A stretch of DNA of 64,000 nucleotides, taken from NCBI GenBank assembly GCA_963799925.1, contig CAWCYZ010000004.1, positions 903,445 to 967,444 on the forward strand, written 5' to 3'. The notes beneath the pieces are model-generated. The model had not been told where the DNA came from. It did not search any database and saw only the letters and a list, made by a program, of their open reading frames with translations. Shown here piece by piece: positions 35,605 through 54,076 of this stretch. How positions within the stretch are numbered: the first letter of the stretch is position 1; each line of letters begins with the position of its first letter. Source of the DNA: an uncultured Acidobacteriota bacterium (GTDB taxonomy: Bacteria > Acidobacteriota > Thermoanaerobaculia > Multivoradales > UBA5704). The translations under genes and the position numbers were made by a program.

Positions 35605-35669
35605 TAGATATCGCCCGCACCGAGGACCTGGCCGGGAATCTACCGAGAATCCAAGAAGGAGCCCCCCGC

Positions 35670-37218: not shown

Positions 37219-38034
37219 ATGGCGCGCCCGCTGGCCCTCGTCACCGGCGGGACCTCGGGGATCGGGCTGGGCATCGCGCGGGCGCTGGCGGCGGAGCACG
37301 ACCTGGCGCTCGGCTACCGCGCCGACGGCGAGCGCGCCGGCGCGGCGCGGGCGGCGCTGGCGCGCGACGTCCCGGCGGCGCGCGTCGAGGTCTTCGCCCA
37401 GCCGCTCGCGGGCTACGCGGACGCCCGCGCCCTGGTCGAGAAGGTGGGGGAAGCCTTCGCCGCGCCGCCGCTCGTCCTCGTCCACTCGGCCGGCCGCGTC
37501 GCCGACCGCCTCTTCCTCGACGGCCCCTTCGAGCTCCACGCCGAGCGCCTGCAGGAGCACTTGGTCGCCGCCATGGCGCTGGCGCACCTCCTCCTCGGCG
37601 GCATGTACCGCGCCCGCCGCGGGCGGGTGATCCTGCTCGGCTCGATCGGCGCCCGCTACGTCAAGCGCGGGCAGGCGGGCTACGCGGCGGCCAAGGCCGG
37701 CCTCGAGGGCTTCGCCCGCGCCCTGGCGCTCGAGGTGGCGCACCGCGGGGTGACCGTCAACGTCGTGGCGCCCGGGCTCGTCGCGACGCCGATGACACGG
37801 CCGATGTTGGAGCCGATGCTGGAGCCGATGTTGGAGCCGGCAATGTTGGAGCCGACCCTCGGATCCCAGGCGGGCGCCGCGGCGCTGCGCCGCCGCATCC
37901 CCGCCGGCCGGGTGGGCGAGCCGGCGGACGTCGGCGCCCTCGTCCGCTTCCTCTGCTCGCCGGCGGCCTCCTACATCACGGGAGCGGTGATCCCGGTCGA
38001 CGGCGGCCGCTCCCTGGGGGACGCCGCGTCGTGA
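37219..38034 (+). CDS. SDR, 3-oxoacyl-ACP-reductase-like (FabG-like), with an internal peptide repeat
   Basis: 271-aa ORF starting directly after the KS stop, with ALVTGGTSGIGLGIA, YAAAKAGLEGFAR (YxxxK) and an unusual insert TRPMLEPMLEPMLEPAMLEPTLG. Confidence 0.8.
   Translation: MARPLALVTGGTSGIGLGIARALAAEHDLALGYRADGERAGAARAALARDVPAARVEVFAQPLAGYADARALVEKVGEAFAAPPLVLVHSAGRVADRLFLDGPFELHAERLQEHLVAAMALAHLLLGGMYRARRGRVILLGSIGARYVKRGQAGYAAAKAGLEGFARALALEVAHRGVTVNVVAPGLVATPMTRPMLEPMLEPMLEPAMLEPTLGSQAGAAALRRRIPAGRVGEPADVGALVRFLCSPAASYITGAVIPVDGGRSLGDAAS
37788..37850 (+). repeat. tandem 12-nt units inside the SDR coding sequence
   Basis: gccgatgacacg, gccgatgttgga, gccgatgctgga, gccgatgttgga, gccggcaatgttgga. 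In frame these encode the (P)MLE repeats. Confidence 0.8.
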
Positions 38035-38825
38035 GCGAGCCGCGCCGGCCGAGCCCTCCGAGTCCTCCGGCGCCGGCGGCGCGGCCGGCGCGCGTCTGCG
38101 TCGTCACCGGCGGCACGCGGGGGATCGGCCGCGCCATCTCGCTCGCCCTGGCGGAGGAGGGGAGCACGGTCTTCGCCCTCTACGCGCGGAACCGCACGGC
38201 GGCCGACGGCCTCGCCGCCGAGGCGGCCGGGCGCGGGCTCGACGTCCGCTGCCTGCGCGGCGACCTCACCCGCGACGAGGCGCTGGCGGCGAGCGTCGAG
38301 GCGATCCGCGCCGCCGCCCCGGCCGTCCACGTCGTCGTCCACTCCGCGGCCTCGGGCGTCCACCGCCCGGCCTTCGAGCTCACCCCCCGGCACCTCCGCT
38401 TCACCTTCGAGACCAACGTCGTCGCCATCCACGCCCTCCTCCGCGAGCTGCTGCCGCGGATGCCCGCGGGCGGCCGGATCGTCGGCCTCACCTCGGCCGG
38501 CGGCGTCCGCACCGGCCCCTACTACGCCGCCGTGGGAGCGAGCAAGGCGGCGCTCGAGTCGCTCTTCCGCCACTACGCCGTCGAGCTCGCCCCGCGCGGC
38601 ATCGCCGTCAACCTCGTCTCGCCCGGCCTGGTGCTGACCGAGGCGACCGAGGTCTTCCCCGACCGCGAGCGCCGCGTCGCCGAGGCCGCGCGCCAGACGC
38701 CCAGCGGACGGCTGACGACGCCAGAGGACGTGGCGCTCCTCGTGCGCTATCTCGCCAGCGACGCCGCGGGGCAGATCGTCGGGCAGACCTTCGCGATCGA
38801 CGGCGGCAAGGGCCTGGCGGGGTGA
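38031..38825 (+). CDS. SDR with Y-x6-K spacing (enoyl-ACP-reductase FabL/FabI-like)
   Basis: The GTG at 38031 overlaps the previous stop (GTGA). It forms the C-terminal part of ORF 36351..38825: VCVVTGGTRGIGRAISLAL..., YYAAVGASKAALESL (Tyr-x6-Lys), and a PGLVLTE...GRLTTPEDVA tail. Confidence 0.7.
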   Translation: MSEPRRPSPPSPPAPAARPARVCVVTGGTRGIGRAISLALAEEGSTVFALYARNRTAADGLAAEAAGRGLDVRCLRGDLTRDEALAASVEAIRAAAPAVHVVVHSAASGVHRPAFELTPRHLRFTFETNVVAIHALLRELLPRMPAGGRIVGLTSAGGVRTGPYYAAVGASKAALESLFRHYAVELAPRGIAVNLVSPGLVLTEATEVFPDRERRVAEAARQTPSGRLTTPEDVALLVRYLASDAAGQIVGQTFAIDGGKGLAG

Positions 38826-38867: not shown

Positions 38868-40289
38868 TCAGGGCGCCGTCGCGGGCTCTCGCGCGATCTG
38901 AGCCAGCTCGGCCCGCAGCTCGGCCTCGGGGAACCAGCGGCCGCGGAGCATCACGCCGTCCTGGCGGAACGCGTTGTCGACGTCGTCGAGCGGGTTCGCG
39001 TCCAGCAGCACGAGGTCGGCGAGCTTCCCCGGCGCGACGGTGCCGGCGTCGGCCGCGGTGCCGAGGAAGCGCGCCGGGTTGGAGGTCGCTGAGCGCAGCG
39101 CCTCGAAAGGCGTCAGGCCGGCCGCGGTCAGCTGCTCGAGCTCGTCCTGCATCGAATATCCCGGTAGCTGGCTCGGCACCATGGGGTCGGTCCCCGCCAG
39201 CAGCGGCACGCCGGCGTCGCGCAGGCCGCGGACCAGGCGCTGCAGCAGCGCGTACTGGGCGCGCAGCCTGGGGATGTCCGCCAGCTTCCAATGCTTCAGG
39301 TAGGGGTTGTTCGGCGGCCGCCAGTCGGCCGTCGCCGAGGCGGGCAGGTAGCGCATCGCCGGCCGCTCCAGCAGCGCGTCGACGTCGGCGACCTGCGCCG
39401 CGATCTGGCGGAAGACGGAGAGCGTCGGCTGCACCCAGGTACTGGCGCGGGCCGTCCGCGCCGCCACCTCGCGCACCATGCGGTCGATCTCGGCCGGGTC
39501 GGTCGGCAGCTCGCGGCGGAAGCGGAAATACGCGTCGAGGAACGACTCGGCGTGGGTGATCAGCGCCTGGCCGCCGTCGAGCGCCGCGTCGATCCCCAGG
39601 TTGGCCGGCACGTGGCCGACGACGCGGAGGCGCTCCTCGCGCGCCGCCGCCAGCAGGGCGCGGTAGGTCGCGGCGGGGAGATCCCCGTGCACCTTGACGA
39701 AGTCGTAGCCCGCCCGCTTCTCGGCGGCGACCTCCCGCCGGACCTCTGCCGGCGTCGTGAAGGTCCGGCGCCCCGGCAGCTCGCCGGAGTTGGGCATCTG
39801 GATCAGGGGCCCGGTCGTGTAGAGCCGCGGCCCGAGCGCGCGGCCGCCCGCCACGTCGGCGCGCAGGCGGAGGATGGCGGGCGTGCCTTCCATGACGACG
39901 GCCGTGGTGACGCCGTTGGCGAGGAGCAGCCCGAGGATCGACCGTTCGACGCGGGGGTCGTCCGCGCCGCGGCGCGAGTAGCCGAAGAAATGGACGTGGC
40001 TGTCGGTCAGGCCGGGGAGGAGGAAGCGATGGCGGCCGTCGATCCGCGAGCAATCCGCGGGCACGGCGCCGCCGGCCGCCGCGACCTCGCGGATGCGGTC
40101 GCCGCGGACCAGCACCGTGCGATGCGGGACGAGCCGCTCCCGGTCCATCGGCACGACCGTCACGTCGACGAACGCCGTGCAGGCCGCCGAGCTCGGCGCC
40201 GCGCCGGCGAGCGAAAGGCAGAGGAGAAAGAGGAGCGCCATGCCGGAGAGCGCGCGGCGCTCCCGTACGTCCCAGCTCGTCCTATCCAT
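38868..40289 (-). CDS. amidohydrolase-family metallohydrolase, secreted
   Basis: Within ORF 38868..40346, with the likely start MDRTSW.. and signal-like ALLFLLCLSLAGAAPSSA. The metal motif is FLLPGLTDSHVHF, with later VVGHVP, ITHAE and GTDPMV, and a C-terminal GKLADLVLLDANPL. Confidence 0.85.
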   Translation of the reverse strand: MDRTSWDVRERRALSGMALLFLLCLSLAGAAPSSAACTAFVDVTVVPMDRERLVPHRTVLVRGDRIREVAAAGGAVPADCSRIDGRHRFLLPGLTDSHVHFFGYSRRGADDPRVERSILGLLLANGVTTAVVMEGTPAILRLRADVAGGRALGPRLYTTGPLIQMPNSGELPGRRTFTTPAEVRREVAAEKRAGYDFVKVHGDLPAATYRALLAAAREERLRVVGHVPANLGIDAALDGGQALITHAESFLDAYFRFRRELPTDPAEIDRMVREVAARTARASTWVQPTLSVFRQIAAQVADVDALLERPAMRYLPASATADWRPPNNPYLKHWKLADIPRLRAQYALLQRLVRGLRDAGVPLLAGTDPMVPSQLPGYSMQDELEQLTAAGLTPFEALRSATSNPARFLGTAADAGTVAPGKLADLVLLDANPLDDVDNAFRQDGVMLRGRWFPEAELRAELAQIAREPATAP

Positions 40290-40537
40290 GAGCGGCTCTC
40301 CCTGGAGATCGAAGCGCCGAGCGCCTTCCGTCGCGGCGAGGTGCACGATACTCGACTTCAGCCGGCCGTCTCACGGCCGGCGCGAGCCTGCGTCCGGCGA
40401 TTGCCTCGCCTGGCGTCTCCGCCTACACTCTTCCGAATTCAAAGGATGCCCGCGGCGCCGTAGCCGCGGTGGGACGCTCCGTGCCGCCGCGGTGGTCGAT
40501 CCAGACCTGCGCGCGCGGCTCCGGCGGGAGGAGATCC

Positions 40538-40918: not shown

Positions 40919-41797
40919 TCACGCGCCCGCCGCGAAGCCCATCAGCCGCTTGAAGTCCTCGATGTGGTCGAGGAGGAGCCGCGCCTTGTCGAGCTTGCGG
41001 CGGATGAGCGAGGCGCTCGGCCGGGCGTAGAAATCGAGGATGCGGTCGCAGAAGGGCCGGCCGTAGTGGTCGACGAGCTGCAGGAAGTCGGCGAAGGGGT
41101 CGCCGACGGCGAGGTTGCCGAAGTCGATCACGCCGGTCACCGTCCGCCGCTCGTCGCAGTAGAGGATGTGCGGCGGCGACAGGTCGCCGTGGATCAGCGC
41201 GTCCTCGGAGCGATAGACCCCAGGGTCGTCGAGCAGGCGGTCGACGAGGACCTGGTAGCGCGGGAGGTCGGGATGGCCGCGGTGCTCGCGGAGCTTGGCG
41301 GCGAGCGTCCGCCGGAAGCCGCGGCCGCCGTCGGCGAGCCACTCGATCGGGCTCCGCTCTAGGGCGACCCCGGCCGCCGCCTCGGCGGCGTGCAGGCGGT
41401 CGAGCGGATAGCCGTGGAGCTGGGTGAAGAAGCTCCCCAGGCGCCGCGCGGCCTCGTCCCGGCCGCCGGCGGGCAGGCTCTCCAGCCGCTCGCGGGTGAG
41501 CGCCTCGCCGGGGATCTTCCGGTAGCCCACGAAGGCGTGCGCGTAGCCGTTCGCCGGCCGGCCGAAGACGAGGTAGCGGGGCACCGGGGGATCGAGCTCG
41601 GCCGCGAGACCCGGCAGGACGAGCAGCTCGCGGCGGAGCTCGGCCGCCGACTCCGCGTCCTTGGGAAAGCGGAAGATCCACTCGCCGTCGACCAGGAAGC
41701 ACTCGTTGCTGGTCCCCGCGCTGGGGCCGCTGACGGCGGCGAGCGCCAGCTCGGGGCACTGCTCGGCGAGGACCGCGCGAGCCTCTTCGGGAGTCAT
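40919..41797 (-). CDS. aminoglycoside-phosphotransferase-family kinase
   Basis: 292-aa ORF with EWIFRFPKD, the catalytic loop ALIHGDLSPPHILY, and the VIDFGNLAVGDP metal-binding motif. Confidence 0.8.
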   Translation of the reverse strand: MTPEEARAVLAEQCPELALAAVSGPSAGTSNECFLVDGEWIFRFPKDAESAAELRRELLVLPGLAAELDPPVPRYLVFGRPANGYAHAFVGYRKIPGEALTRERLESLPAGGRDEAARRLGSFFTQLHGYPLDRLHAAEAAAGVALERSPIEWLADGGRGFRRTLAAKLREHRGHPDLPRYQVLVDRLLDDPGVYRSEDALIHGDLSPPHILYCDERRTVTGVIDFGNLAVGDPFADFLQLVDHYGRPFCDRILDFYARPSASLIRRKLDKARLLLDHIEDFKRLMGFAAGA

Positions 41798-41822: not shown

Positions 41823-42866
41823 TCAGGCCGGGCCGATCCGGTCGCTCAGCCGCTGGCTGGCGAAGTGCGTCCGCCGCCGGGGGGCGAGATCGGCGACGAT
41901 GCGCTCGATGTGGCGGCCGGTCTCGCCGTCCATGTTGTCGGTGATGTAGTAGCGGTCGGCCGGCACCCAGCGCTTCTCGTGGAAGAAGAAGGCCGAGAGG
42001 GCGCGGCGCGGGCCGACCTCGACGAACACCGGCCGGCGGTGGCGGTAGAGGATGGTGTCGATCGACTGGCGCCAGTAGACCGGCTCGTAGAGGTGGCGGC
42101 CGACGAGGTCGATCAGCGTCTCGCGGCTCGGCTTCTCGACCAGCCTCCCCAGCGCGTTGGGCAGGTAGGGCAGCCGCGGCTCCTGGAGCTCGGCGTTCTC
42201 CGACAGCCACCAGGAGAGGCGCTCGCCGATCGGCCGCATCAGGCTCGAGTGGAGCGGCAGCTTGACCGGCATGAACATCGAGCGCGACTCCGGCTGCTCC
42301 TCCTTGAGGCGCTCGCAGGCCCAGCGCACCGGCGCCGACTCGCCCACGATGTGGTGGAGGTGGGGCGACAGCATGCCGCCGATCTCGATCAGGCCGTGGG
42401 CGCGGGCGCGCTCGACGATCGCCGCCACCGGCTCGATCGGGATGCGGTAGACGACCGCGCGGTCGCCCACCGGGTCGGGGAGGTCGGGCGGCGACGGCCG
42501 CTCGAGGATCTTCAACGCCTGGGCGAAGGAGAGGGCGCCGATGTGCACCAGGTGGTTGTACTCGCCGAGGCTGAAGCCGAGGGAGAGGCTGGCCTCGACC
42601 CCCGCCGCCTCGAGCACCCGCTGGTACATGTGGTTGACGAGGAAGATCCCCAGCCGCTGGTCGCGCTTCGCCTTGAAGACGCCGGGGTCGTCCGCCAGGT
42701 AGCGCGACAGGTCCTCGCCCAGCACCGCCGCCGCCTCGGCGAGGATCTCGCCGGCCAGGGGCTTGAGCTCGACGAGCTTGCGGATCATCCCGGCGTAGCG
42801 GGACGACTGGCTGGGGAACATGAAGACGACCGGGCCGGGCGGCATCGCGGGCGGGGCTCTGCTCAT
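41823..42866 (-). CDS. acyltransferase (malonyl-CoA:ACP transacylase/FabD-like)
   Basis: 347-aa ORF with VVFMFPSQSSRYAGM and the nucleophile elbow LGFSLGEYNHLVH (GxSxG). Confidence 0.75.
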   Translation of the reverse strand: MSRAPPAMPPGPVVFMFPSQSSRYAGMIRKLVELKPLAGEILAEAAAVLGEDLSRYLADDPGVFKAKRDQRLGIFLVNHMYQRVLEAAGVEASLSLGFSLGEYNHLVHIGALSFAQALKILERPSPPDLPDPVGDRAVVYRIPIEPVAAIVERARAHGLIEIGGMLSPHLHHIVGESAPVRWACERLKEEQPESRSMFMPVKLPLHSSLMRPIGERLSWWLSENAELQEPRLPYLPNALGRLVEKPSRETLIDLVGRHLYEPVYWRQSIDTILYRHRRPVFVEVGPRRALSAFFFHEKRWVPADRYYITDNMDGETGRHIERIVADLAPRRRTHFASQRLSDRIGPA

Positions 42867-42897: not shown

Positions 42898-43890
42898 TCA
42901 GAGCGCCGGCTCGGCCATGCGGACGTAGACGTCGCGCGCGCCGCGAAAGGCGGTGCGGCCGTGGAGGACGCGGGTGTTGTCGATCATCAGCGCGTCGCCG
43001 GCGCTCCAGGCGACGGCGGCGGCGAGCCGTCGGTCGAGCGCCAGCAGCTCCTTGATCACCGCCCCCGGCACCGGCGCGCCGTCCTCCATCCGCACGGTGA
43101 TGGGGAAGCGCGCGCCGGCGAGCTGGCGGATGGTCTCCCCCGCCGTGCCGCGCTTGAGCGACAGCTCCCCCATGTAGAGCGAGACGACGTTGTTGATGAA
43201 GGTGGCGGGGCGGCCGGGGCGGTGCTCGCCGCCGGGGACGATCGCCCAGGCGAGGTGCTCGGTCGCCACGGCGCCGGTCGCGGGGTCCACCTCCAGCCGC
43301 GTGTCGTTCTCCCGGCAGTAGCGCTCGACCTCGGCCAGGTCGCCGGTCTGGAAGGCCGCCTGCCAGGCGCCGTCCGGGAGCTCGCGCCGGTAGCGGACGC
43401 GGCGCGTCGTGAAGAGCCGGCGCGCCGTCTCGCTCAGGGCGGCGGCGATCGCCTCGCCGTCGCAGAGCGTCGTCTCGCCCCCCTCGGCCGCCGGGCGCTC
43501 GCAGAAGAACCAGAGGATCGCCGGCCGCCGGCCGGTGTAGTACATCTCGCCGTGGAGGGGGATGGCGAACCCCTCCTGGCTGCCGGTGACGGTCAGCAGG
43601 GTGCCGGCGGCGCCGACCGGCTGGCGGTCGCGGAAGAAGCCGCCCTGGTAGGAGGAGAAGCCGCGCGACGAGCGCTCGGAGAGCGCCACGAGCTCGTCGC
43701 GGCTGGCGCCGAAGCGGCGGAAGAGGAGGGCCCCGTGCCGGCGGAGGAGGCGGGCGACCTCGGCGGGGTCGAGGTCGCCGAGGCTCGCGGCCGGCGCCGC
43801 CGCCGAGCCTTCGAGCGGCGCCGGCTCGATCGCGCGGCCGAAGGACCCGCCGAGCGGCTGGGTCGAGATCTCCGGCCGCGCCACGGCCAT
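42898..43890 (-). CDS. TauD/TfdA-family Fe(II)/2-oxoglutarate dioxygenase (SyrP-like)
   Basis: 330-aa ORF with the facial-triad context AIPLHGEMYY, a distal NTRVLHGRTAF, and the size and layout of the clavaminate-synthase-like fold. Confidence 0.7.
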   Translation of the reverse strand: MAVARPEISTQPLGGSFGRAIEPAPLEGSAAAPAASLGDLDPAEVARLLRRHGALLFRRFGASRDELVALSERSSRGFSSYQGGFFRDRQPVGAAGTLLTVTGSQEGFAIPLHGEMYYTGRRPAILWFFCERPAAEGGETTLCDGEAIAAALSETARRLFTTRRVRYRRELPDGAWQAAFQTGDLAEVERYCRENDTRLEVDPATGAVATEHLAWAIVPGGEHRPGRPATFINNVVSLYMGELSLKRGTAGETIRQLAGARFPITVRMEDGAPVPGAVIKELLALDRRLAAAVAWSAGDALMIDNTRVLHGRTAFRGARDVYVRMAEPAL

Positions 43891-43921: not shown

Positions 43922-44743
43922 CTACTCGCCGTTGACGCACTTGTCGATCTCTTGCAGGGTGACGAGGCCCTTCAGCACCGAGTAGGCGATGAGGACGGTC
44001 TGGGCGCCGATCGCGAACGGCGGGTAGCCGAGGCTCGGCACCTGGAAGACGGCCATCAACTTGGCCCAGTTCGACAGCGCCTCCTGGCCTTCCCAGCCGG
44101 CGCCCTGGGCCGCCGCGACCAGCACGCCGACCTGGGCCGTCATGCCGGCGGGCGTCCACTTGTTGGCGAACTGGTCGTTGGCCTGGTGCAGCGCGTTGGT
44201 GACCAGGCGGGTGAACTGGAAGGAGAGGATGAGGTCGAGCTGCAGGGCCTCGGTGTTGATCGAGCTGTTGTCGATCCCCTCGGCCAGGTCGTTCCAGCGG
44301 TCGGGGTTGTCGGGGATGTTGTCCCAGCCGCTGATCGACTGCTGGATCTGGCCCTGGTACTGCGGGTTCTGGTTGTAGATGGCGCTGGTGTTGTAGAGCG
44401 GCACGCCGGTCGCCTTGTTGCGCGTCACCAGGAGGAAGTAGAACGCCTTCAGGATGTTGTTCGGGTTGCTCGCGGGGAGCGGGTTCGAGGGCAGCGCGAA
44501 TTGGGCGATCACCTCGACGATGGTGCTGCGGTCCTGCGGGCCGAGGTTCTGGACGAGGTCCTTCAAGGCCCCTTCGAGGAGCTTGCCGAGGCACTCGAGC
44601 TCCTTGTCGTCCTCGGAATCGGCGTCGCCGTCGCCGTCGCCATCGCCGTCGCCGCCGTCGAGCGTCAGGCCGCCGACCTCCTCGTCGAAGCTGTCGACGT
44701 CCGCGTGATCCGCATCGTCCCAATCCTGCCCGTCGATGTCCAT
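43922..44743 (-). CDS. hypothetical protein, unknown family; acidic (GD)n N-terminus
   Basis: 273-aa ORF, the first gene of the minus-strand run 44743..40919. MDIDGQDWDDADHADVDSFDEEVGGLTLDGGDGDGDGDGDADSEDDKE is followed by an N/Q-rich globular part (NQNPQYQGQIQQSISGWDNIPDNPDRWNDL...). I recognise no motif. Confidence 0.6.
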   Translation of the reverse strand: MDIDGQDWDDADHADVDSFDEEVGGLTLDGGDGDGDGDGDADSEDDKELECLGKLLEGALKDLVQNLGPQDRSTIVEVIAQFALPSNPLPASNPNNILKAFYFLLVTRNKATGVPLYNTSAIYNQNPQYQGQIQQSISGWDNIPDNPDRWNDLAEGIDNSSINTEALQLDLILSFQFTRLVTNALHQANDQFANKWTPAGMTAQVGVLVAAAQGAGWEGQEALSNWAKLMAVFQVPSLGYPPFAIGAQTVLIAYSVLKGLVTLQEIDKCVNGE

Positions 44744-44896: not shown

Positions 44897-45631
44897 ATGC
44901 CGAACGATCCCCGAACGGCTCCGCCGGCGATCCGCTGGCCATCACGCCGGCGATCCGCGCCGGCATCCAAAACCGCCGAGGAGCGAGCGATCACGCGGCA
45001 GATGCGGCACCTCTTGCGAGCGGCGGACCCGCGCCACGAAAGCCTCCTGGCGCGGCTCTACGCGGCGGCCTCGATCGACCTCGATCCCCTTTCCGCGCCC
45101 GCCGAGGCCTACGTCACCAAGGCCGGCCGGCGGCTCGCCTGGGCGCTCGACCTGCGCCGGCCTCTCCTCCGCTCGGAGCACCTGCAGCCGGCGGCCGCGG
45201 CGGTCGCCGAGCGGCTGCTCGGCGAGGGGGCGACGCAGGTCGCCGGCAAGGGGATGGGCGCCGCGCCGCTGGTCTGCGGGGTGGTCGCCGCGGCGCGCGG
45301 CATCGACGGCGCGCTGCTGCGCGACCGGCCCAAGGAGCGCGGCTTCCTGCGCCCGTTCGAGGGCGAGCTCGACCGCGGCCGGCCGGTCTGGCTGCTCGAC
45401 GACATCGTCAACACCGGGCGCAGCACGGGCGAGCTCGCCGGGGTGCTGCGCGCCGAGGGCTTCCGGGTCGCCGGGGTGCTCTGCCTCTTCCACTACTCCT
45501 GGGGCCCCGGCCGCGCCCGGCTGGCGCGCCTGGAGCTGCCGCTCGCCGCCCTGGCGACGCTCGCCCAGCGCCCCGGCCGCGTCTTCGCCTGCGAGCGCCT
45601 CTACGCCGGCTTCGCCCCGCTCGCCGGCTGA
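44897..45631 (+). CDS. phosphoribosyltransferase (type I PRTase fold)
   Basis: C-terminal part of ORF 43952..45631, starting from ATG 44897. The PRPP-binding loop is RPVWLLDDIVNTGRSTGE. Confidence 0.75.
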   Translation: MPNDPRTAPPAIRWPSRRRSAPASKTAEERAITRQMRHLLRAADPRHESLLARLYAAASIDLDPLSAPAEAYVTKAGRRLAWALDLRRPLLRSEHLQPAAAAVAERLLGEGATQVAGKGMGAAPLVCGVVAAARGIDGALLRDRPKERGFLRPFEGELDRGRPVWLLDDIVNTGRSTGELAGVLRAEGFRVAGVLCLFHYSWGPGRARLARLELPLAALATLAQRPGRVFACERLYAGFAPLAG

Positions 45632-45633
45632 GC

Positions 45634-46719
45634 ATGGCTACCCATCGGCCGCCCGCCCGCCCGCCGGCTCGAGCCCCCAAGCTCCTCCTCCTGGCGAGCT
45701 ACGCGACGGCGGAGGACCTCGCCGCCGACCGCGTCGCCGGGCGGCTGATGCTCGCCGGGCTCGACCGCCGCGGCATCGACTGGCAGCTCCACCAGCCCTG
45801 GCTGCCCTGCCCCGACCTCGCCGACTTCGACGCCGTCCTCTGCTGGACCTACCGCTGGCAGGTCGACAGCTTCCCCTTCTGGGCCGGGCGGATCGAGCGC
45901 CAGGCGGCGGCGCTCGGCATCCCGGTCGTCAACGGCGTCGAGCGCTGCGCCGAGCCGCACTCCTACTTCCTCCGCGCCTGGCGGGAGCGCGGCGTCCCCT
46001 GCGCCGCGGCGCGCCGCTTCGCCCGCGCCGCCGAGCTCGACGGCCTCGGCCTCGCCTACCCGCTGCTCGTCCGCCGCGACGGCGTCCACCGGGGCCAGGA
46101 CGTCCACCTCGTGGCGACGCCGGAGGAGGCGCGGGCGCTCGTCGCCGGGCGCGAGCGCGACCGCGAGACGCTGCGCGGCGCCGAGCGCCCGCGCGGCCGC
46201 TTCGATCTCGCGATCGAGTTCGTCGACACCGCCGACGAGCGCGGCGTCTACCGCAAGTGGCGCAGCTACGTCGTCGGCCAGCGGGTGATCCCCCGCCTCC
46301 TCGAGCTGTCGCGCCACTGGCTGGTCAACTTCGGCAACCTGATCGAGGACGCCGCGGCGGCCGCCGAGGACCGCGCCTTCGTGCGCGACGGGGATCCCCG
46401 CCCGGACCTCCTGCGCGAGGCGGCGCGCTGGACCGGCGCCGACATCGTCGCCCTCGACTACGCCCGGCGGCGCGACGGCGGCTACGTCTTCTGGGAGGCG
46501 AACCGCCATTTCCTGATGCTGGGCGACCCCGGCTACGAGCGGCCGGAGCGGATGCACGCCGCGACCGGCAGGAGCCCCGAGGAGCGGCGGGCGGAGGACG
46601 AGCGGCTGGGGCTCGCCATCGCCGACCTGGTGATCGAGCGCGCGGCGGGCGCGCGTGCCGCGGACGCCGAACCGTCCATCGTGGACGCCGCCGCCGCCGT
46701 TCCGACCGCCGGGCGCTAG
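45634..46719 (+). CDS. ATP-grasp-family ligase (RimK-like), paralog 1
   Basis: 361-aa ORF starting 3 nt after the PRTase stop, with YPLLVRRDGVHRGQDVHLV, LAIEFVDTADERGVYRKWRSYVVG and VALDYARRRDGGYVFWEANR (an ExN-type Mg site). Confidence 0.7.
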   Translation: MATHRPPARPPARAPKLLLLASYATAEDLAADRVAGRLMLAGLDRRGIDWQLHQPWLPCPDLADFDAVLCWTYRWQVDSFPFWAGRIERQAAALGIPVVNGVERCAEPHSYFLRAWRERGVPCAAARRFARAAELDGLGLAYPLLVRRDGVHRGQDVHLVATPEEARALVAGRERDRETLRGAERPRGRFDLAIEFVDTADERGVYRKWRSYVVGQRVIPRLLELSRHWLVNFGNLIEDAAAAAEDRAFVRDGDPRPDLLREAARWTGADIVALDYARRRDGGYVFWEANRHFLMLGDPGYERPERMHAATGRSPEERRAEDERLGLAIADLVIERAAGARAADAEPSIVDAAAAVPTAGR

Positions 46720-46733
46720 GCGGCGCGCCCGCC

Positions 46734-47678
46734 ATGCCCGTGCGGCTCCTCGTCTCGACCTCCTACCGGACGCCCGAGGGCTTCCGCGAGTTCCAGGCCG
46801 CCCGTCAGCTCGCCGCCGCGCTCGAGCGCCGCGGCATCGCCTGGGAGCTCCGCCAGCCGTGGCGGGACGCCGCCGACCTCGCCTCCTTCGACGCCGTCCT
46901 CAACTGGACCTATCGCCACACCTGGGGCGGCTTCCTGGCCCACGCCGCCCGCCTCGAGGCCCGGGCGGCGGCGCTCGGCCTGGCCGTCGTCAACCCCACC
47001 GGGAGCTTCACCTATCTCCATTCGCGCGACCTCGCCGTCTGGGCGCGCCGCGGCATCCCCTGCCCGCCGCACCAGCGCTTCGCGGACCTGGGCGAGGTGC
47101 GCCTGCGCTATCCGCAGGTCCTGCGCCGCGACAGCGAGCACCAGGGGGGCCGCATGCACCGGGTCGGCGACGCCGTCGAGGCGCGCGCCGCCCTCGCCGC
47201 CGACCGCGGGACGGGCGCCGGGGAGAAGCCGCTCGACCTGGCCGTCGAGTTCGTCGACACCCGCTGGCCGGACGGCCTCTACCGCAAGCGCCGGGCCTAC
47301 GTGGTGGGCGGCGAGGTGATCCCGGCGCACGCCGTGCGCTCGGCGAGCTGGATCGTCAACTTCGGCGCGCGGGTCGGCACGCTCGCCTCCTATCGGGAAG
47401 ACAAGCGGTACCTCGGCGAGGGCGAGCCGCGGGCGGACCTGGTGCAGGCCGCCGTGGCGGCGCTCGGCGCCGATTGGGCGGCGGTCGACTACAGCCCGAC
47501 GCCGGCGGGGGAGTACGTCTTCTGGGAGGCCAACCGCAACCCGCGCATGTGGGGCGACAAGGGGCTGCCGGCGGCGAGCCGGGTGCGCGAGCCCGACCGG
47601 CGGTGGGGCGAGGCGCTGGTGGATCTCGTGCTGCGCCGGATGGCGGAGGCTCAGCGAGGTGGCCCGGATGGAGCCTAG
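46734..47678 (+). CDS. ATP-grasp-family ligase, paralog 2
   Basis: C-terminal part of ORF 44805..47678, starting from ATG 46734. It is collinear with paralog 1 (FDAVLNWTYRHTWGGF..., YPQVLRRDSEHQGGRMHRV, LAVEFVDTRWPDGLYRKRRAYVVG, AAVDYSPTPAGEYVFWEANR). Confidence 0.7.
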   Translation: MPVRLLVSTSYRTPEGFREFQAARQLAAALERRGIAWELRQPWRDAADLASFDAVLNWTYRHTWGGFLAHAARLEARAAALGLAVVNPTGSFTYLHSRDLAVWARRGIPCPPHQRFADLGEVRLRYPQVLRRDSEHQGGRMHRVGDAVEARAALAADRGTGAGEKPLDLAVEFVDTRWPDGLYRKRRAYVVGGEVIPAHAVRSASWIVNFGARVGTLASYREDKRYLGEGEPRADLVQAAVAALGADWAAVDYSPTPAGEYVFWEANRNPRMWGDKGLPAASRVREPDRRWGEALVDLVLRRMAEAQRGGPDGA

Positions 47679-47826
47679 CGGGATCCGGGGTCGCGAATCC
47701 GGCCCGATCCCGGATTCCGCCGCGCTCCATTGGGGCTCCATGCGCTCCGCCCCGGATTCCGCTGCGCTCTATCGGGGCTCCATGCGCTCATGCGCCAGGA
47801 CGTTGGAACGTCTCGAGATCGGTTCC

Positions 47827-48033
47827 CATTGTCATCCTGAGCGAAGCGAAGGATCTGGGCGGGGGCAGCCTCGAAGTCCAACGGATTTCGAGGCTTGGAC
47901 GTTCCCGCCTCCCAGGTCCTTCGCTTCGCTCAGGATGACAATGGAAGGTATGAGCGCATCGCAGTGGAGTACGCTTCTGTTGGTCCCCGAAAAATTCCCA
48001 GATCCTGAGCGAAGCGAAGGATCTGGGCGGGGG
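47827..48033. repeat. REP/MITE-like repeat cluster (cattgtcatcctgagcgaagcgaaggatctgggcggggg family)
   Basis: Forward copy at 47827-47866, inverted copy at 47906-47944 (together a long hairpin), and a third forward partial copy at 48001-48033. A second module, tcgcagtggagtacgcttctgttggtccccgaaaaattc, is at 47959-47997. Both modules recur at 60136-60243. Confidence 0.85.
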
Positions 48034-48236: not shown

Positions 48237-49838
48237 ATGACCGCCGATCCATCGCTCGACGACTTCGTCGCGTCGCGCCGGCGCGAGGACAACCTGCCCG
48301 GCGTCGCCCTGGCCCTCGTCGCCGATGGCGAGGTCGTCGCCTGCCGCGCCTGGGGTGTCGCGGACCTCGCGTCCGGCGCGCCGCTCGGGCAGGATGCCGC
48401 CTTCCGGGCGGGCTCGCTCACCAAGCTCGTCACCGCGGCGACGGCGCTCCGGCTGGTCGAGCGGCGCGTCGTCGGGCTCGACGAGCCGGTCCTCCGCTAC
48501 GTCCCCTGGCTCGCGGCGCGCGCCGCCGGCGGCGGCCCGGCCGACCTTTCGGCGCTCACGCTGCGCCATCTCCTCGCCCATGGCTCGGGGCTGCCGCGGG
48601 GCCCCTACGGCATGGCGCCGCGCTCGACGGAAGAACGCCTCCGCGACCTCGCCGGCATGGCGCTCGCCTTCCCTCCCGGAGAGCGGAGCAAGTACTCGAA
48701 TCTCGGCTACGCCCTGGCCGCCCATGTCCTGGCGCAGGCCGCCGGGAGGCCCTACCACGAGCTGGCGCGCGAGCTGGTCCTGGCGCCCGCCGGCATGGAC
48801 GGCGCGGGCTTCGGCGCGCCGGCGACGTCAGCCGGCGGCCTCGCGACCGGCCACCAGCGCGGCCACTACCGCTCGCTGGTCCGCCGCGGCGACCGGCTGG
48901 AGCCGGCGCCGGACCTTCCGGCTGCCGAGGGAGCGGGAGATCTGGTGGCCTCCGCCCGAGACCTCGCCCGGCTCGCCAACGCTCTCTTGCCCGGCCGGCT
49001 TTCTCTTCTCTCCGCAGCTTCCTGGGCCGAGGTCACGCGGCCGCCGGTCGCGGCCGCCCCTGGCGCCCGCCCGTTCGGGCTCGCCCTCCGCCTCGGCCGC
49101 CGCTTCGGCCGGCCCTGCCTGGAGCAGGACGCCGGCCACTCCGGCTTCTTCGCGCTGCTTCGGATCTTCCCCGCGGACGGCGTCGCCGGCGTCGCCCTCG
49201 CCAACCGCTGCTCCGCCTACTACCCGGTCTCCGAGATCCTCGACCGCGCCCTGGCGCCGCTCCTTGCGGCGGGCGGCCGGCCCGCGGAGCGCGGCCCGGC
49301 GGACGACCTCGGGCGCTACGCGGGCGACTACCGCTCGCCCGCCGGCGCGCTCCGCGTCCGCCTCGCCGCCGGGCGCCTGGAGCTCGAGCACGGCGGAGAG
49401 GCGATCCCCCTCACCCGCCACGGCCGTGGCCACTTCATCCAGGAGCGCGGGCCGTTCTCCGACCACCTGGCGCGCTTCGCCTTCTCCGGCGCCGCCGGCA
49501 TCGGCGCCTGGGAGCTGACCGCCGGCCCGCGCCTCTGGGGGCGCGCCGGCGCCGGGCCGGCGTCGCGGTGGGAGGCGGCGCCGAGCCCCGATCCGGCGTT
49601 CGGCGCCCGCGCGGGGATCTATCACCGGCCCGGCTACGGCGATGCCCGCGTCTATGAGCGCGCGGGGCGGCTCTGGCTGTCGATGCACTACGCCGAAGAG
49701 GAGGAGCTGCTGCCGGCCGGCGACGGGACCTTCCGGCTCGCCGGCGGCGGTTTCGTCGGCGAGCCGGTGGAGTTCGAGACGGCGGCTGGGGAGGCGGCCG
49801 CGCTGGAGGCCGGCTCCATGCGGTTCGTGCGGCGCTGA
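48237..49838 (+). CDS. serine hydrolase of the beta-lactamase/transpeptidase-like family with a C-terminal extension
   Basis: 533-aa ORF with the SxxK motif FRAGSLTKLVT, the YxN motif KYSNLGY, and later DAGHSGF. Confidence 0.8.
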   Translation: MTADPSLDDFVASRRREDNLPGVALALVADGEVVACRAWGVADLASGAPLGQDAAFRAGSLTKLVTAATALRLVERRVVGLDEPVLRYVPWLAARAAGGGPADLSALTLRHLLAHGSGLPRGPYGMAPRSTEERLRDLAGMALAFPPGERSKYSNLGYALAAHVLAQAAGRPYHELARELVLAPAGMDGAGFGAPATSAGGLATGHQRGHYRSLVRRGDRLEPAPDLPAAEGAGDLVASARDLARLANALLPGRLSLLSAASWAEVTRPPVAAAPGARPFGLALRLGRRFGRPCLEQDAGHSGFFALLRIFPADGVAGVALANRCSAYYPVSEILDRALAPLLAAGGRPAERGPADDLGRYAGDYRSPAGALRVRLAAGRLELEHGGEAIPLTRHGRGHFIQERGPFSDHLARFAFSGAAGIGAWELTAGPRLWGRAGAGPASRWEAAPSPDPAFGARAGIYHRPGYGDARVYERAGRLWLSMHYAEEEELLPAGDGTFRLAGGGFVGEPVEFETAAGEAAALEAGSMRFVRR

Positions 49839-49848
49839 GGGCTCGCCG

Positions 49849-50163
49849 CTACCGCGCGCCCGGCAGCTTCGCCGCGAGCACGTCGATCTTCTCGATCGCG
49901 GGGGGCTGCGCTAGGAGCTCGCCGGCCTTCGCCATCAGGGCCGCGGCGACGCGGCCCGCGAGGTGGGCCTGGCGGCCCGCCTCGTCGGGGAAGGCGTCGA
50001 AGATGCCGAAGCTCGACGGCCCCATGCGGAGGGCGAACCAGGCGGTCGTCGCCGGCTCCTCCTCGACGATCGCGAGACCGCTCCGCAGGAAGCTCTCGAC
50101 CTCCGCTTCCTTCCCTGCCTTCGCCTCGAGCCGGACGAGCAACGCTACGTGGACCATGGTCAT
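49849..50163 (-). CDS. antibiotic-biosynthesis-monooxygenase (ABM/Dabb)-fold protein
   Basis: Within ORF 49849..50235. SD aaggag lies before ATG 50163. MTMVHVALLVRLEAKAGKEAEVESFLRSGLAIVEEEPATTAWFALRMGPSSFGIFDAFPDEAGRQAHL has the size and pattern of the ferredoxin-like ABM domain. Confidence 0.65.
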   Translation of the reverse strand: MTMVHVALLVRLEAKAGKEAEVESFLRSGLAIVEEEPATTAWFALRMGPSSFGIFDAFPDEAGRQAHLAGRVAAALMAKAGELLAQPPAIEKIDVLAAKLPGAR

Positions 50164-50259
50164 CGCTCCTTTTCTGTCAGGCCCGAGGATAGCAGCGCCG
50201 CCTGGACGGCGCGCTCGCGGCGCCGAGGCGACCACCCTCGTTCAATGCCCCGCGGCCGG

Positions 50260-50847: not shown

Positions 50848-52689
50848 TCACTTCACGATGTCGACGAGCTGCATCATCCCCTGGTCCTCGTGGGTGAGGA
50901 TGTGGCAGTGGAGGACGAAGCTGCCGTCGAAGTCGTCGTAGCGGGTGAGGAACTTGAAGTGGCCGGGGACGATCTTGCCCGTGCTGTCCTTGTGCCCCTT
51001 GGGGATGAGGAAGGTGTCGTGCCAGGGGCGCTGCTTGGGGTCGCCGATCCGCACCACCCCGCCGTCCGGCCGCGTGTACTCGCTCACCTGGAAGGGGTTG
51101 ACGTGGATGTGGAAGGGGTGGTCCTGGTCGGTGCAGTTGAAGACCGTCCACTCCTCGGTGGCGCCGAGCTTGAGGGTCTGGTCGACGCGGTGGGAGTCGA
51201 AGTCGTGGCCGTTGACGATGAAGCGCGGCCGCTTCAGCTTGTCGTCGAAGACGGTCGAGAAGTAGAGCGGCGGGCGCGCCTTGGCGATCCGCTCGTCGAT
51301 CGGCTGGATCTTGTCGCCGGGGAGGACGTCCGGGAGCTTCATCTCCTTGGCCTCGGGGAGGACGTCGATCTGGGCGAGGACCTGGTCCGGGTCGGTCACC
51401 CCCTTCTCCCGCATCGACTCGGACTTGTAGAGGTAATAGCGCCCCGGCTGCTCGATCTTGACCAGCACGTCGGCGCGGTTGCCGGGGGCCATGTCCAGCC
51501 GCTCGAGCGGCCGCCGCCGCGGCAGCGTGATGCCGTCGACCGCGATGACGTGGAGCTGGGCGTCCGGCACGTTGTCGCCCACCAGCCGGATCGGCAGCAC
51601 GTTGAGGAAGCCGGCATGGACGAAGCGCCAGCGCTCCACCTCGCCGCGGTGGAGGACGATCTGCGGCTTCACCTGGCCGTTGATCAGGGTGAGCTTGATC
51701 TTCTTGTTCCAGTTGCGCTCGAGGTCCTTGAAGCTCTCGCTGCGGCCGGTCGCCGGATCGTAGGAGAGCTGCTGGAAGACGAAGACCTTCTCGGCCGCGG
51801 CGCGGATCTCGGGCACCCGGTCGATGTCGCCCTCGAGGATCAGCGCCCCCTCCATGCCGCTGGCGAGCTGCAGGGCGGTCGAGCCGTGCTGGTGGGGGTG
51901 GTACCAGTCGGTGCCGGGGTGGTGGTCCTTGGGGATGCGCACGTCGACCTGGTACTTGCAGCCCGGCTCGACGGTCAGCAGCACGTCGTCCTGCGGCGGC
52001 CGCGGCGAGACGTGGAGGCCGTGGACGTGGAGGTTGGTGTCGTTCAGGCGGAAGCTGGCCGGGTTGTTGGGGTCGGCGTGCTCGTGCCCGTGGAAGGTGC
52101 ACTGGGCGGGCTTGCAGGGCGGGGCGCCGGGGGCCTGGCCGTTGCAGGGGAGGTCGTTCTCGAGCTTCACCCGCAGGTGGCGCTCGGCGTCGTCCTTCTT
52201 GAAGCGGAAGGTCGGCGCCGGCGTCGTCCCCTTGCCGGTGTGGGGGTCGATGTAGGACCGCAGCAGGAGGTCCTGGCCGTTGACGTGGAGCGTCGCGTAG
52301 GCGACGCGGAGGGTGGTGTCGATCAGGGTGTCGGCGGCGATCTCCGGCGGCTCGATCCACTTCGGGGCCGCCGCCTGGAAGAGCGCGCTCGCCTTGAGGT
52401 GCGCCATGCGCACCCCCTTCGACTCGGGGATCTCGACGCTCGGCAGCAGTGCCCCCAGCGGTCCCAGCGGCCCCGGCGCGCCGGCTTTCGCGGCCGCGGC
52501 GAGGTGGCCGCCGGCGCGCGGCGGCGGCGGCGATGGCGACGCGAGGTCGCAGGGGCCGTCGGCGGTCTGGACGATCGTGCTCTGTGCGGCGAGCGGGGCG
52601 ACGGCGGCGAGCCCCAGGATGGCGAAGAGGACGGCGCGGCTCCCGCGGTGGGGGCGCGCGCCGGAGGCGCGAAAGAAGGCAATGCTCAA
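50848..52689 (-). CDS. multicopper oxidase (laccase-like), secreted
   Basis: Within ORF 50848..53013. The likely start is TTG 52689, preceded by ggaggag. All four copper motifs are present: NLHVHGLHV, TDWYHPHQHG, HPFHIHVNPFQV and VLHCHILTHEDQGMM. Confidence 0.9.
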   Translation of the reverse strand: MSIAFFRASGARPHRGSRAVLFAILGLAAVAPLAAQSTIVQTADGPCDLASPSPPPPRAGGHLAAAAKAGAPGPLGPLGALLPSVEIPESKGVRMAHLKASALFQAAAPKWIEPPEIAADTLIDTTLRVAYATLHVNGQDLLLRSYIDPHTGKGTTPAPTFRFKKDDAERHLRVKLENDLPCNGQAPGAPPCKPAQCTFHGHEHADPNNPASFRLNDTNLHVHGLHVSPRPPQDDVLLTVEPGCKYQVDVRIPKDHHPGTDWYHPHQHGSTALQLASGMEGALILEGDIDRVPEIRAAAEKVFVFQQLSYDPATGRSESFKDLERNWNKKIKLTLINGQVKPQIVLHRGEVERWRFVHAGFLNVLPIRLVGDNVPDAQLHVIAVDGITLPRRRPLERLDMAPGNRADVLVKIEQPGRYYLYKSESMREKGVTDPDQVLAQIDVLPEAKEMKLPDVLPGDKIQPIDERIAKARPPLYFSTVFDDKLKRPRFIVNGHDFDSHRVDQTLKLGATEEWTVFNCTDQDHPFHIHVNPFQVSEYTRPDGGVVRIGDPKQRPWHDTFLIPKGHKDSTGKIVPGHFKFLTRYDDFDGSFVLHCHILTHEDQGMMQLVDIVK

Positions 52690-52897
52690 GGCGGCTCCTC
52701 CTATGGGAGGCGCGGGTCGGGACGCTGCGGCATGGGCCGCCCGCCGGGCGGCCGAACGACGACAGGTCGCGACGGCGGCGCCGCCGCTCCCGACCACGCT
52801 CCCGGGTTTTGGGTGGGAGATTACTAGCACGGCCCGAGCGCGGGCGCAACGGCGCGGGGGGCCAGCCGGCGCGGAGCGCGGTGATACGCTCGCCGCC

Positions 52898-54075
52898 GTG
52901 CCCCGCCACCCCCGCGTGAGCTCGGCGGCCGCGGCGCTGCCGGCGACGTCGTACTCGATCCCGCACCGCCTGACGGAGGCGGCGGAGGTCTTTCCGCTCC
53001 ACCTGGGCGACACCTGGCGGCTGCCTCCCGCCGGCTGCCGGCTCGAGGACCTCGCCGCGGCGCGCCATCCGGACCTCTATCGCTACGCGCCGCCGGGCGG
53101 CCTGCCGGCGCTGGTGGACGCGCTCGTCGAGCGGGCGCGGGCGGAGACCGGCGTTGCCCTGCGGCGCAAGAACGTGCTGGTGACGGCGGGCGCGACCGGC
53201 GCCTTCGCGGCGGTGCTCGGCGCGATCGTCGAGCCGGGGGACGAGGTGCTGCTCCTCTCGCCCCACTGGCCGCTCGCCGGCGGGCTCGTCGCCGCCTTCG
53301 GCGGCGTTCCGGTCGAGGTGCCGTTCCATCGCGCGACGGGGCCGGAGGGAATCCCGGGATCGGCCGACCAGACCGAAGCCGCGGTCGCCGCCGTCGCGGC
53401 GCGGGCGGGGGAGCGGACGGTCGCGCTCTACTTCAACTCGCCCAACAACCCCACCGGCGACGTCCTGCCGCGGGCGTGCATCGAGGCGCTCGTCCTCTGG
53501 GCGCGGAGCGCCGGGCTCTGGGTCCTGGCGGACGAGACCTACCGGGACTTCTGCTACGAGGGCGAGGCCGTCGACGCCTTCGGCCTCGCTCCCGAGCGCA
53601 CCTTCGCCTTCCGCTCGTTCTCGAAGTCCTTCGGCATGGCCGGCAACCGCTGCGGCTGGGTGATGGGGCCGCTGCCGGCGATGGGCGACGCGCTCCGCAT
53701 GGCGACGCAGCTCGTCTACTCGGCGCCGACCGGCGCGCAGCTCTGCGCTCTCGCCGCGCTCGACGGGCGCGGCGAGAGCTGGGCCGCCGAGGCCCGCGCC
53801 GAGTACCGCGCGACCGGCGTCCGCGCCGCCGCGCGCCTCGGCGTCGCGGCGCCGCGCGGCGCCACTTTCCTCTTTCTGGACTCTTGCCGAGCTGGCGGCC
53901 ATGGGGACGGCGATCTCCGGCCTTCCTCCGCTGCGCCGCCGACCGCGGCCTGCTGCTCTCCCCCGGCACCAGCTTCGGCCCGTACCCCACCTCGGTCCGC
54001 CTCTGCTTCAGCGCCGCGCCGCCCGCGGTCGTGCGGCGCGGCGTCGAGGTGCTGGGCGAGCTCCTCGGGCGGTAG
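52898..54075 (+). CDS. class I/II PLP-dependent aminotransferase, with a frameshift near 53880
   Basis: In the frame of ORF 52313..: YAPPGGLPALVDAL, NSPNNPTGDV, and the PLP-Lys motif FRSFSKSFGMAGNRCGW. The C-terminus RGLLLSPGTSFGPYPTSVRLCFS is in ORF 53476..54075. The start (GTG 52898 or 52916) is uncertain. Confidence 0.8.
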
Positions 54076-54076
54076 C

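Follow-up and report, generated by a model that had tools for sequence, protein, structure and literature searches.

Several described systems each resemble part of the locus considered here. The ATP-grasp ligases LysX and ArgX act on the carrier protein LysW and RimK acts on ribosomal protein S6, in each case at a protein C-terminus. In purine synthesis, PurF and PurD pair an amine-forming phosphoribosyltransferase (PRTase), dependent on phosphoribosyl pyrophosphate, with an ATP-grasp amide ligase, and PyrE is the housekeeping orotate phosphoribosyltransferase (OPRT). CysD and BelU, of the cystargolide and belactosin pathways, are ATP-grasp enzymes that add an amino acid to an acyl-amino-acid intermediate independently of a nonribosomal peptide synthetase (NRPS) (PMC11427300). 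In Xanthomonas oryzae, MurD2 adds L-Glu to UDP-MurNAc-L-Ala, and MurL, an ATP- and Mg-dependent, unidirectional epimerase, converts this C-terminal L-Glu to D-Glu, probably via an acyl-adenylate (PMC5808125). We compared with these systems a trio of adjacent genes, encoding a PRTase and two paralogous ATP-grasp ligases (A and B), in a 64,000-nt stretch of DNA (the window) from an uncultured bacterium of the Acidobacteriota (assembly GCA_963799925.1, contig CAWCYZ010000004.1, positions 903,445 to 967,444).

According to the reading that we prefer, to which we give about an even chance, the trio opens an operon, and this operon belongs to a conserved, NRPS-independent biosynthetic cluster, so far uncharacterised, of Thermoanaerobaculia-type Acidobacteriota. 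The ligases would couple two amino-acid units onto a small-molecule intermediate, a MurL-like enzyme would epimerise, and the PRTase would be accessory. The superfamilies involved (type I PRTase, ATP-grasp, MurL and the penicillin-binding-protein (PBP) fold) are known; neither the families nor their combination is. The first-pass annotation of the window had linked a PRTase plus twin ligases to no characterised pathway, and literature searches for PRTase plus ATP-grasp clusters gave nothing relevant. Further, no characterised pathway with the wider gene set was found in the searchable literature.

The phosphoribosyltransferase and the twin ligases

The three genes of the trio are as follows.

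45002 to 45631, plus strand: OPRT-like type I PRTase, 209 aa; phosphoribosyl pyrophosphate (PRPP) loop VWLLDDIVNTGRS; R107, K111 and E120-G121 invariant; profile against human OPRT (PDB 2wns) E 3.6e-17
45634 to 46719, plus strand: ATP-grasp ligase A, 361 aa; AlphaFold2 model pLDDT 92.8; top Foldseek matches LysX/ArgX/RimK; Mg triad D275/E288/N290 invariant
46734 to 47678, plus strand: ATP-grasp ligase B, 314 aa, an old paralog of A; support for the B clade 100/99 across 7 loci

The PRTase is separated from ligase A by 2 nt and ligase A from ligase B by 14 nt, as the first-pass annotation had described. In the three open reading frames (ORFs), GC at third codon positions was 0.94-0.97 compared with 0.53-0.58 at second positions (the genome is ~75% GC), indicating that these are real genes. 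The PRTase had been read as 245 aa from position 44897, a start that would give 244 aa. However, all 14 orthologs and the database gene calls begin MRHxL, at ATG 45002, and third-position GC drops to background upstream of ~45000. Thus, the start is most likely ATG 45002, giving 209 aa, and the assignment to type I PRTases with a PRPP loop stands. The second ligase was likewise in the place described and a paralog of the first, with 314 rather than 315 aa. All of the motifs that had been quoted (VWLLDDIVNTGRS, FDAVLxWTYR, AxEFVDT....G.YRK.R.YVVG and YVFWEANR) were found, and the ATP-grasp pair is paralogous and collinear, with 43% identity along 326 residues (E 4e-56). A Pfam search of the three proteins returned zero matches; the trio was assigned to families by weak NCBIfam matches, profile-to-PDB matches and predicted fold.

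The PRTase shares with PyrE the type I fold, the PRPP loop, the Arg and Lys of the flexible loop and the EG motif, and the good PDB matches of a profile of the 14 orthologs were OPRT structures only. Among these orthologs, D134 of the PRPP loop is invariant and N137 and G139 are nearly so. The invariant residues of the flexible catalytic loop align to RRKETKDYG..EG of human OPRT. However, the PRTase scored 40.5 bits against the pyrE model TIGR00336 (cut-off 106.8), and 16.5 bits against TIGR01367 (cut-off 150). Further, the orotate-binding 'DR' motif of OPRTs, the Arg of which we take to be the orotate-binding Arg156 of Salmonella OPRT, aligns to an invariant C-L-F-(H/R)-(Y/F)-x-W-G in the PRTase, and W47, C92, C161 and W167 are additional invariant residues. 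The genome carries a separate Thermus-type pyrE (G000:C4:1981086-1981636), the ortholog of which in the sister genome (G365) is intact and scored 195 bits. Thus, with a score below the cut-off, the DR motif replaced and a pyrE elsewhere, the PRTase is neither an ordinary salvage enzyme nor an ordinary de novo one. Its conserved residues mark it as a neofunctionalised OPRT-like enzyme, with intact PRPP and pyrophosphate sites and a remodelled base pocket.

A hidden Markov model search with the PRTase among 1.84 billion representative sequences gave 35 matches at E <= 1e-30 and 794 at E <= 1e-10. The OPRT-like domains most similar to the PRTase (P0139, P0141 and P0173) are fused to AMMECR1, in proteins of ~950 aa, and one protein of 1370 aa combines PRTase, AMMECR1 and APH kinase domains. 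We found no characterisation of this fusion architecture; the PRTase thus belongs to a broader group of OPRT-like domains for which none was found. No riboswitch or other RNA was detected upstream of the PRTase gene or elsewhere in the window.

A Foldseek search with ligase A best matched LysX and ArgX (5k2m, 3vpb and 3vpd; E ~1e-14, TM 0.5-0.7) and RimK, followed by D-Ala-D-Ala ligases, at 14-20% identity. The ligase profile matched LysX 3vpd with an E value of 1.6e-4 and, weakly, the ATP-binding segment of PurD, and phmmer with ligase A against the PDB gave zero matches. Ligase B scored 19.7 bits against TIGR00768 (cut-off 143.4), and ligase A had no NCBIfam match at that family. By the profile sub-classification that had been suggested in the first-pass annotation, the PRTase is OPRT-like yet below the pyrE cut-off, and the ligases are LysX/ArgX/RimK-like yet below the family cut-offs. 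The ATP/Mg residues R147, K208, R210, D275, E288 and N290 were invariant across 23 A-type, B-type and outlying sequences, with R147 aligned to a Lys of LysX. Judged by these residues, both paralogs look like catalytically competent LysX/RimK-type carboxylate-amine ligases. In a phylogenetic tree, the B ligases of the different loci grouped apart from the A ligases, from which we conclude that the duplication is old and that both copies have been kept; this points to two different steps.

Compared with LysX, ArgX and RimK, ligases A and B have the same fold and keep the Mg/ATP residues, but they carry ~40-80 extra residues, including a long C-terminal helix, and form a pair of specialised tandem paralogs. 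There is no LysW-like zinc-ribbon carrier, S6 context or LysZ/LysY gene here, and no LysW-like gene was seen in the cluster. As with PurF and PurD, a type I PRTase gene is directly followed by that of an ATP-grasp carboxylate-amine ligase, with the weak PurD matches noted above. However, the PRTase has no glutaminase domain and is OPRT-like rather than PurF-like, and the ligases are RimK/LysX-like rather than PurD-like. We also considered a graspetide (microviridin-type) pathway, in which twin ligases act on a ribosomally synthesised peptide, and rejected it: no small ORF for a precursor with a leader and a Thr/Ser/Lys plus Asp/Glu core was conserved beside the ligases, the sole candidate was a folded protein of 270 aa, and the top 50 fold matches contained no microviridin ligase.

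A conserved cluster around the trio

The trio heads a plus-strand operon that continues with genes for a PBP-like hydrolase, an aminotransferase, an esterase and a MurL-like epimerase. Transcribed divergently are genes for an orphan protein with an acidic tract, a TauD dioxygenase, a FabD-like acyltransferase (AT) and an APH kinase. These are adjoined by a lipid cassette of fatty acyl-AMP ligase (FAAL), acyl carrier protein (ACP), ketosynthase (KS) and ketoreductase (KR) genes, so that the cluster spans ~30 kb, from ~33.2 kb to ~62 kb of the window. Its conservation was counted over 10 independent loci, mostly from metagenome-assembled genomes (MAGs) of Thermoanaerobaculia; several of the contigs are short, and many end early. 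Besides the trio, the features are as follows.

33176 to 34876, plus strand: FAAL, split by apparent frameshifts
34926 to 35618, plus strand: KS-like 258-aa partner protein, three frame changes
35670 to 35939, plus strand: ACP
35948 to 37218, plus strand: KS, one frame change near 36289
37219 to 38034 and 38094 to 38825, plus strand: two tandem KR-type genes of the short-chain dehydrogenase/reductase family
40919 to 41797, minus strand: APH-family small-molecule kinase, in 5 of the 10 loci
41823 to 42866, minus strand: FabD-like malonyl-CoA:ACP acyltransferase (AT)
42898 to 43890, minus strand: TauD/TfdA-family Fe(II)/2-oxoglutarate dioxygenase
43922 to 44743, minus strand: orphan 273-aa protein with a disordered acidic (DG/DA)n N-terminus and an all-alpha domain, divergent from the PRTase gene
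47709 to 48033, unstranded: direct and inverted repeats resembling repetitive extragenic palindromic (REP) or miniature inverted-repeat transposable elements, between ligase B and the PBP-fold gene
48237 to 49838, plus strand: PBP-fold serine hydrolase with a DUF3471 tail (Blac1), in 10 of the 10 loci
52970 to 54075, plus strand: class I (AspAT-like) aminotransferase, frame change near 53900
54062 to 55333, plus strand: second beta-lactamase-fold esterase (LipE/EstB-like)
55330 to 56670, plus strand: homolog of the ATP-dependent peptide epimerase MurL; NF041275, E 2e-53, full length, 181 bits (cut-off 700)
60864 to 61955, minus strand: stand-alone carrier-protein/thioesterase didomain (ACP-TE), 63% identical to that of locus L010; orthologs also in L006 and L033

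Ligase A, like Blac1, was present in all 10 loci; ligase B, TauD and AT were each present in nine, the PRTase in eight, the aminotransferase in six and the MurL-like gene in four. The orphan protein was found in nine loci and, as a diverged copy, in L008. Synteny was strict across 8-10 loci at 50-87% identity. In the best-preserved locus, L010, the seven genes from the PRTase to the MurL-like epimerase overlap or abut, in the order PRTase, ligase A, ligase B, Blac1 with DUF3471 tail, class I aminotransferase, second esterase and MurL-like epimerase. On its divergent side lie the orphan protein, TauD, the FabD-like AT and APH, with FAAL, FabA, KS-like, ACP, KS, KR and KR genes upstream and an ACP-TE nearby; all of these cluster genes are also present in the window.

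The neighbourhood comparison that had been proposed thus showed that ligases and PRTase are conserved together in eight of the 10 independent loci. The opposing case that the first-pass annotation had itself raised, an ordinary salvage enzyme without such co-conservation, failed on this count as well as on the score, the DR motif and the separate pyrE. The PRTase gene adjoins that of ligase A in all eight loci that carry it, where the two are probably translationally coupled. In L006, a 319-nt gap takes the place of the PRTase gene, and both ligases, TauD, AT, the orphan protein, Blac1, the aminotransferase, the MurL-like gene and ACP-TE are present. L008 likewise lacks a PRTase at the canonical position; a 209-aa ORF of this locus was considered as the PRTase and rejected, since it encodes the orphan protein in its diverged form. 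The cluster of the sister genome is distributed over three places (C1:134-148 kb, C1:1293787 and C3:62527), with the eight-gene core, the MurL ortholog and the KS ortholog apart from one another.

The cluster is rare. Among 5.8 billion proteins, there were 27 matches to ligase A, 16 to the PRTase and 10 to the orphan protein, and in a sample of 401 genomes of the phylum, close matches were confined to the window's own genus. Named homolog records came from MAGs of Thermoanaerobaculia or Acidobacteriota.

The window contains three apparent insertions relative to this layout: an amidohydrolase gene (38868-40346), the REP-like repeats (47.7-48.0 kb) and a multicopper oxidase gene (50848-53013). 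The repeats comprise a direct repeat with a spacing of 42 nt and inverted repeats of 32-51 nt (ATCCTGAGCGAAGCGAAGGATCTGGGCGGGGG) and lie in a 560-nt gap between ligase B and Blac1, genes that overlap or abut in orthologous loci, where this gap is absent. The multicopper oxidase gene, on the minus strand, splits the operon between Blac1 and the aminotransferase and has no counterpart in any orthologous locus. A 128-aa gene on the minus strand (49849-50235) has an 87%-identical ortholog in the same place after the PBP-fold gene of the sister genome (L005, 13723-14028) and is therefore not peculiar to the window. A called gene of 9289 residues with no Pfam match (L005:14289-21035) starts immediately downstream of the core of the cluster in that genome.

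The FAAL, KS-like, KS and aminotransferase genes are interrupted by frame changes, as is the essential pyrE. Completeness scores were 84.6% for this genome, which is in 6 contigs, and 100% for the sister genome. Because pyrE is also split and completeness is low, we read the changes in the cluster as assembly indels rather than gene decay, and they are likely to be long-read indel errors and not the mark of pseudogenes.

The aminotransferase was considered as an alpha-oxoamine synthase of a sphingolipid-like pathway; this was ruled out by its class I 'SFSK' motif and by its nearest structure, Thermus AspAT. Its best NCBIfam match was GntC, with 168 bits compared with 158 bits for generic aminotransferases and a cut-off of 415. 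Together with TauD, the library matches of which cover the C-terminal motif only, it was also considered as a capreomycidine/enduracididine pair (VioC/VioD, GntC/GntD), for which these scores are marginal.

Ligase and MurL-like genes together

Distant members of the ligase family (34-47% identity) never had a PRTase nearby. Some are found beside homocitrate synthase (HCS) and aconitase genes (L004 and L007), a penicillin amidase gene (L003), or Mur-ligase, sulfotransferase and PALP genes (L009). In others, the partner is a MurL-like gene: this gene overlaps the ligase gene by 13 nt in a Streptosporangiaceae locus (L037) and adjoins it in L040. In an Acidobacteriaceae MAG (L035; CAWJXA010000006.1, 4827-7121), a single ORF of 764 aa is MurL-like over residues 3-445 and ATP-grasp over residues 445-756; this locus also holds two further ligase paralogs and a poly-Asp protein with the domain of the orphan protein.

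A third ligase paralog of the present genome lies beside genes for a PIG-L deacetylase, a GT4 glycosyltransferase and a methyltransferase, ~11 kb from a second MurL-like paralog and with a KS also within ~11 kb. The sites are G000:C4:990217-991170 and 1001801-1003078, ~23-36 kb past the end of the window, and G365:C1:1263471-1276408. This region may be a second, related cluster.

Thus, because distant ligases occur without a PRTase, yet beside or fused to MurL-like genes, the ligase-epimerase pair is the deeper module and the PRTase is probably accessory. The best-supported functional core, by analogy with MurD2 and MurL, would be one in which the ligase adds an L-residue and the MurL-like enzyme epimerises that residue. 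As in that system, a ligase gene is coupled to a gene of the MurL family, in the same operon in the window and L010, adjacent in L037 and fused in L035. In contrast, the ligases here have an ATP-grasp fold and not a Mur-ligase fold, the MurL homolog is far below the equivalog cut-off, and the setting resembles a secondary-metabolite cluster rather than peptidoglycan synthesis. A likeness to CysD and BelU in gene context lies in the distant family members of L004 and L007, which stand beside isopropylmalate synthase/HCS-like and aconitase-like genes in the same logic as in the cystargolide and belactosin clusters. However, the window lacks the beta-lactone-forming enzyme set, and those pathways have no PRTase, MurL-like gene or orphan protein.

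Acceptor, order of steps and significance

In the pathway that we infer, ligases A and B would each use ATP to phosphorylate a carboxylate and couple the acyl-phosphate to an amine, so that a small-molecule intermediate gains two different amino-acid units, one after the other. The MurL-like enzyme would adenylate the new C-terminal L-residue and epimerise it to the D form, as MurL does after MurD2. PBP-fold enzymes typically recognise D-residues or acyl esters; those of the cluster may link the peptide with the acyl chain borne by the ACP, or release them. Tailoring of the product would fall to TauD, the aminotransferase and APH. The PRTase, co-expressed with the ligases, would have an accessory part, in tailoring or in supplying a building block: PRPP-dependent phosphoribosylation of a nitrogen nucleophile that is not orotate. 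The product would probably be small, acylated and peptide-like, with a D-amino acid. As a best guess, it would be a di- or oligopeptide-like metabolite that is acylated and hydroxylated and perhaps also phosphorylated; from the PRTase-bearing versions of the cluster, it would carry in addition a group derived from ribosyl phosphate.

Several points weigh against this account. Gene order and the MurD2/MurL analogy are all that suggests the order of the steps. The MurL-like gene was found in just four of the 10 loci, several of which are on short contigs, and the cluster is spread over three places in the sister genome. An indel artefact could account for the fusion in L035, which was found in a nanopore MAG. 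That the PRTase is probably accessory was concluded from its absence from two contigs, and trans-encoded copies are possible. Finally, a protein acceptor is a live alternative: the nearest structural relatives of the ligases act on the C-termini of LysW and S6, and the orphan acidic protein is always present in the cluster.

The orphan protein begins with a conserved MDxDxQDW motif, followed by a disordered (DG/DA)n tract ending in ..ELEC; residues 1-44 are predicted to be disordered. Its all-alpha domain was modelled with pLDDT ~90 and gave no significant match in a fold search (best E 0.76). K99, R108, Y123, D141, D170 and H186 are invariant polar residues. Past an invariant Cys, the protein ends in a short acidic tail, the last residue of which is Glu in 9 of 14 sequences and otherwise variable (G, D or E overall), with a 13-residue extension in L006; the C-terminal Glu was considered as an attachment point, and this idea was weakened by the variable termini. 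The orphan protein evolves faster than the enzymes (41-46% compared with 61-68% identity), and L001 holds two tandem copies. Its C-terminal domain was also detected in L035 and in a cultured gammaproteobacterium, Litoribrevibacter euphylliae (hhalign probability 98% and 97%), in proteins that carry D13 and D23 tracts and lie beside a member of this ligase family and a Blac1-like gene. The locus of L. euphylliae KCTC 52438 (L038:9389-15460) comprises a 34%-identical ligase, the D23-tract protein of 251 aa, a P450 and the Blac1-like gene. An N-terminal extension of its ligase ORF was considered as PRTase-like and rejected. Poly-Asp proteins were not found beside other distant ligase homologs. 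These features are compatible with a substrate or carrier, and likewise with an immunity protein or a novel enzyme.

Accordingly placed beside the preferred reading is a protein-templated one, in which the orphan protein is the substrate or carrier and the ligases attach amino acids at its acidic tail or tract, in the manner of LysX on LysW and RimK on S6. TauD, the aminotransferase, the kinase, the epimerase and perhaps also the PRTase would modify the tethered residue, which the PBP-fold peptidase would then release. The presence of the orphan protein or a diverged form of it in all 10 loci, the recurrence of its domain with the ligase family and Blac1-like genes, the predicted disorder of its N-terminus beside a remainder that matches no known fold, its tandem copies and fast evolution, and the acidic tail, often ending in Glu, all agree with such a role, as do the protein-C-terminus ligases that are the best structural matches of A and B. 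Nevertheless, we think it unlikely, given that the terminal residue varies and is extended in L006, that a well-folded domain with invariant polar residues in a protein of 270 aa could equally mean an enzyme or an immunity protein, that many members of the ligase family have no orphan-type neighbour, and that acidic tracts are common spacers. Somewhat more doubtful again is a fully tethered pathway, in which amino acids would be ligated to the orphan protein, epimerised, tailored, with PRPP-dependent phosphoribosylation among the steps, and then clipped off.

The first-pass annotation had placed the PRTase at the start of the route. In an extended form of that proposal, the PRTase makes a nucleotide-like scaffold, such as the ribonucleotide of a carboxylated heterocycle, to which ligases A and B add two amino acids to give a lipo-peptidyl nucleoside; in a variant, TauD and the aminotransferase turn the nucleotide into an amino-nucleoside, as LipL and LipO do in lipo-nucleoside antibiotics. 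The adjacency and probable translational coupling of the PRTase and ligase A genes in 8 of 8 PRTase-bearing loci, the intact catalytic PRPP machinery and the nucleotide-linked peptide that is the natural substrate of MurL are all in keeping with a scaffold of this kind. The cluster also holds TauD, aminotransferase, APH and fatty-acyl genes together, a set that presumably corresponds to the aminoribosyl/uridine-aldehyde enzymes of A-90289 and caprazamycin. RimK-family MptN and CofF decorate ribosyl-phosphate-containing cofactors, and MptN was a weak NCBIfam match only. However, L006 is a near-complete cluster without the PRTase, L008 also lacks it, ligase-family members in other phyla never have a PRTase neighbour, and in the libraries searched, TauD was not specifically similar to any nucleotide dioxygenase. 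The PRTase therefore does not define what the ligases accept; the RimK-like nature of the ligases that had been proposed stands, and a PRPP-derived acceptor is not favoured and seems to us improbable. A mere coincidence, in which a pyrimidine or purine salvage PRTase happens to lie beside RimK-type ribosomal-protein glutamate ligases with no shared pathway, could appeal to the label 'orotate phosphoribosyltransferase' that some sources give the PRTase and to the weak RimK/LysX matches. With scores far under the curated cut-offs, the orotate motif replaced, a separate pyrE, strict synteny and a biosynthetic-cluster setting, we give it hardly any credence. The reading in which the ligases build on a small-molecule intermediate and the PRTase is accessory is thus the one that we retain.

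Acidobacteriota are abundant soil bacteria, and their secondary metabolism is almost unexplored. The present cluster brings together four families without a characterised member: an OPRT-like PRTase with a remodelled pocket, two ATP-grasp lineages and an all-alpha protein with an acidic tract. Characterisation of the PRTase would open an unstudied OPRT-like group of 794 cluster representatives (E <= 1e-10), some of them fused to AMMECR1 or APH. The tethered pathway, if true, would be the ATP-grasp counterpart of the LysW carrier system and of scaffold-peptide biosynthesis of the pearlin type, and it would give a first function to a new all-alpha protein family present in at least two phyla. 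L. euphylliae, being cultured, is a possible experimental handle on the ligase module. With its MurL-like epimerase, the cluster points to a way of making D-amino-acid-containing peptides independently of an NRPS. If the pairing of ligase and MurL-like enzyme is general, it would extend the MurD2/MurL principle from the cell wall to secondary metabolism and provide testable substrates for the many orphan MurL homologs.

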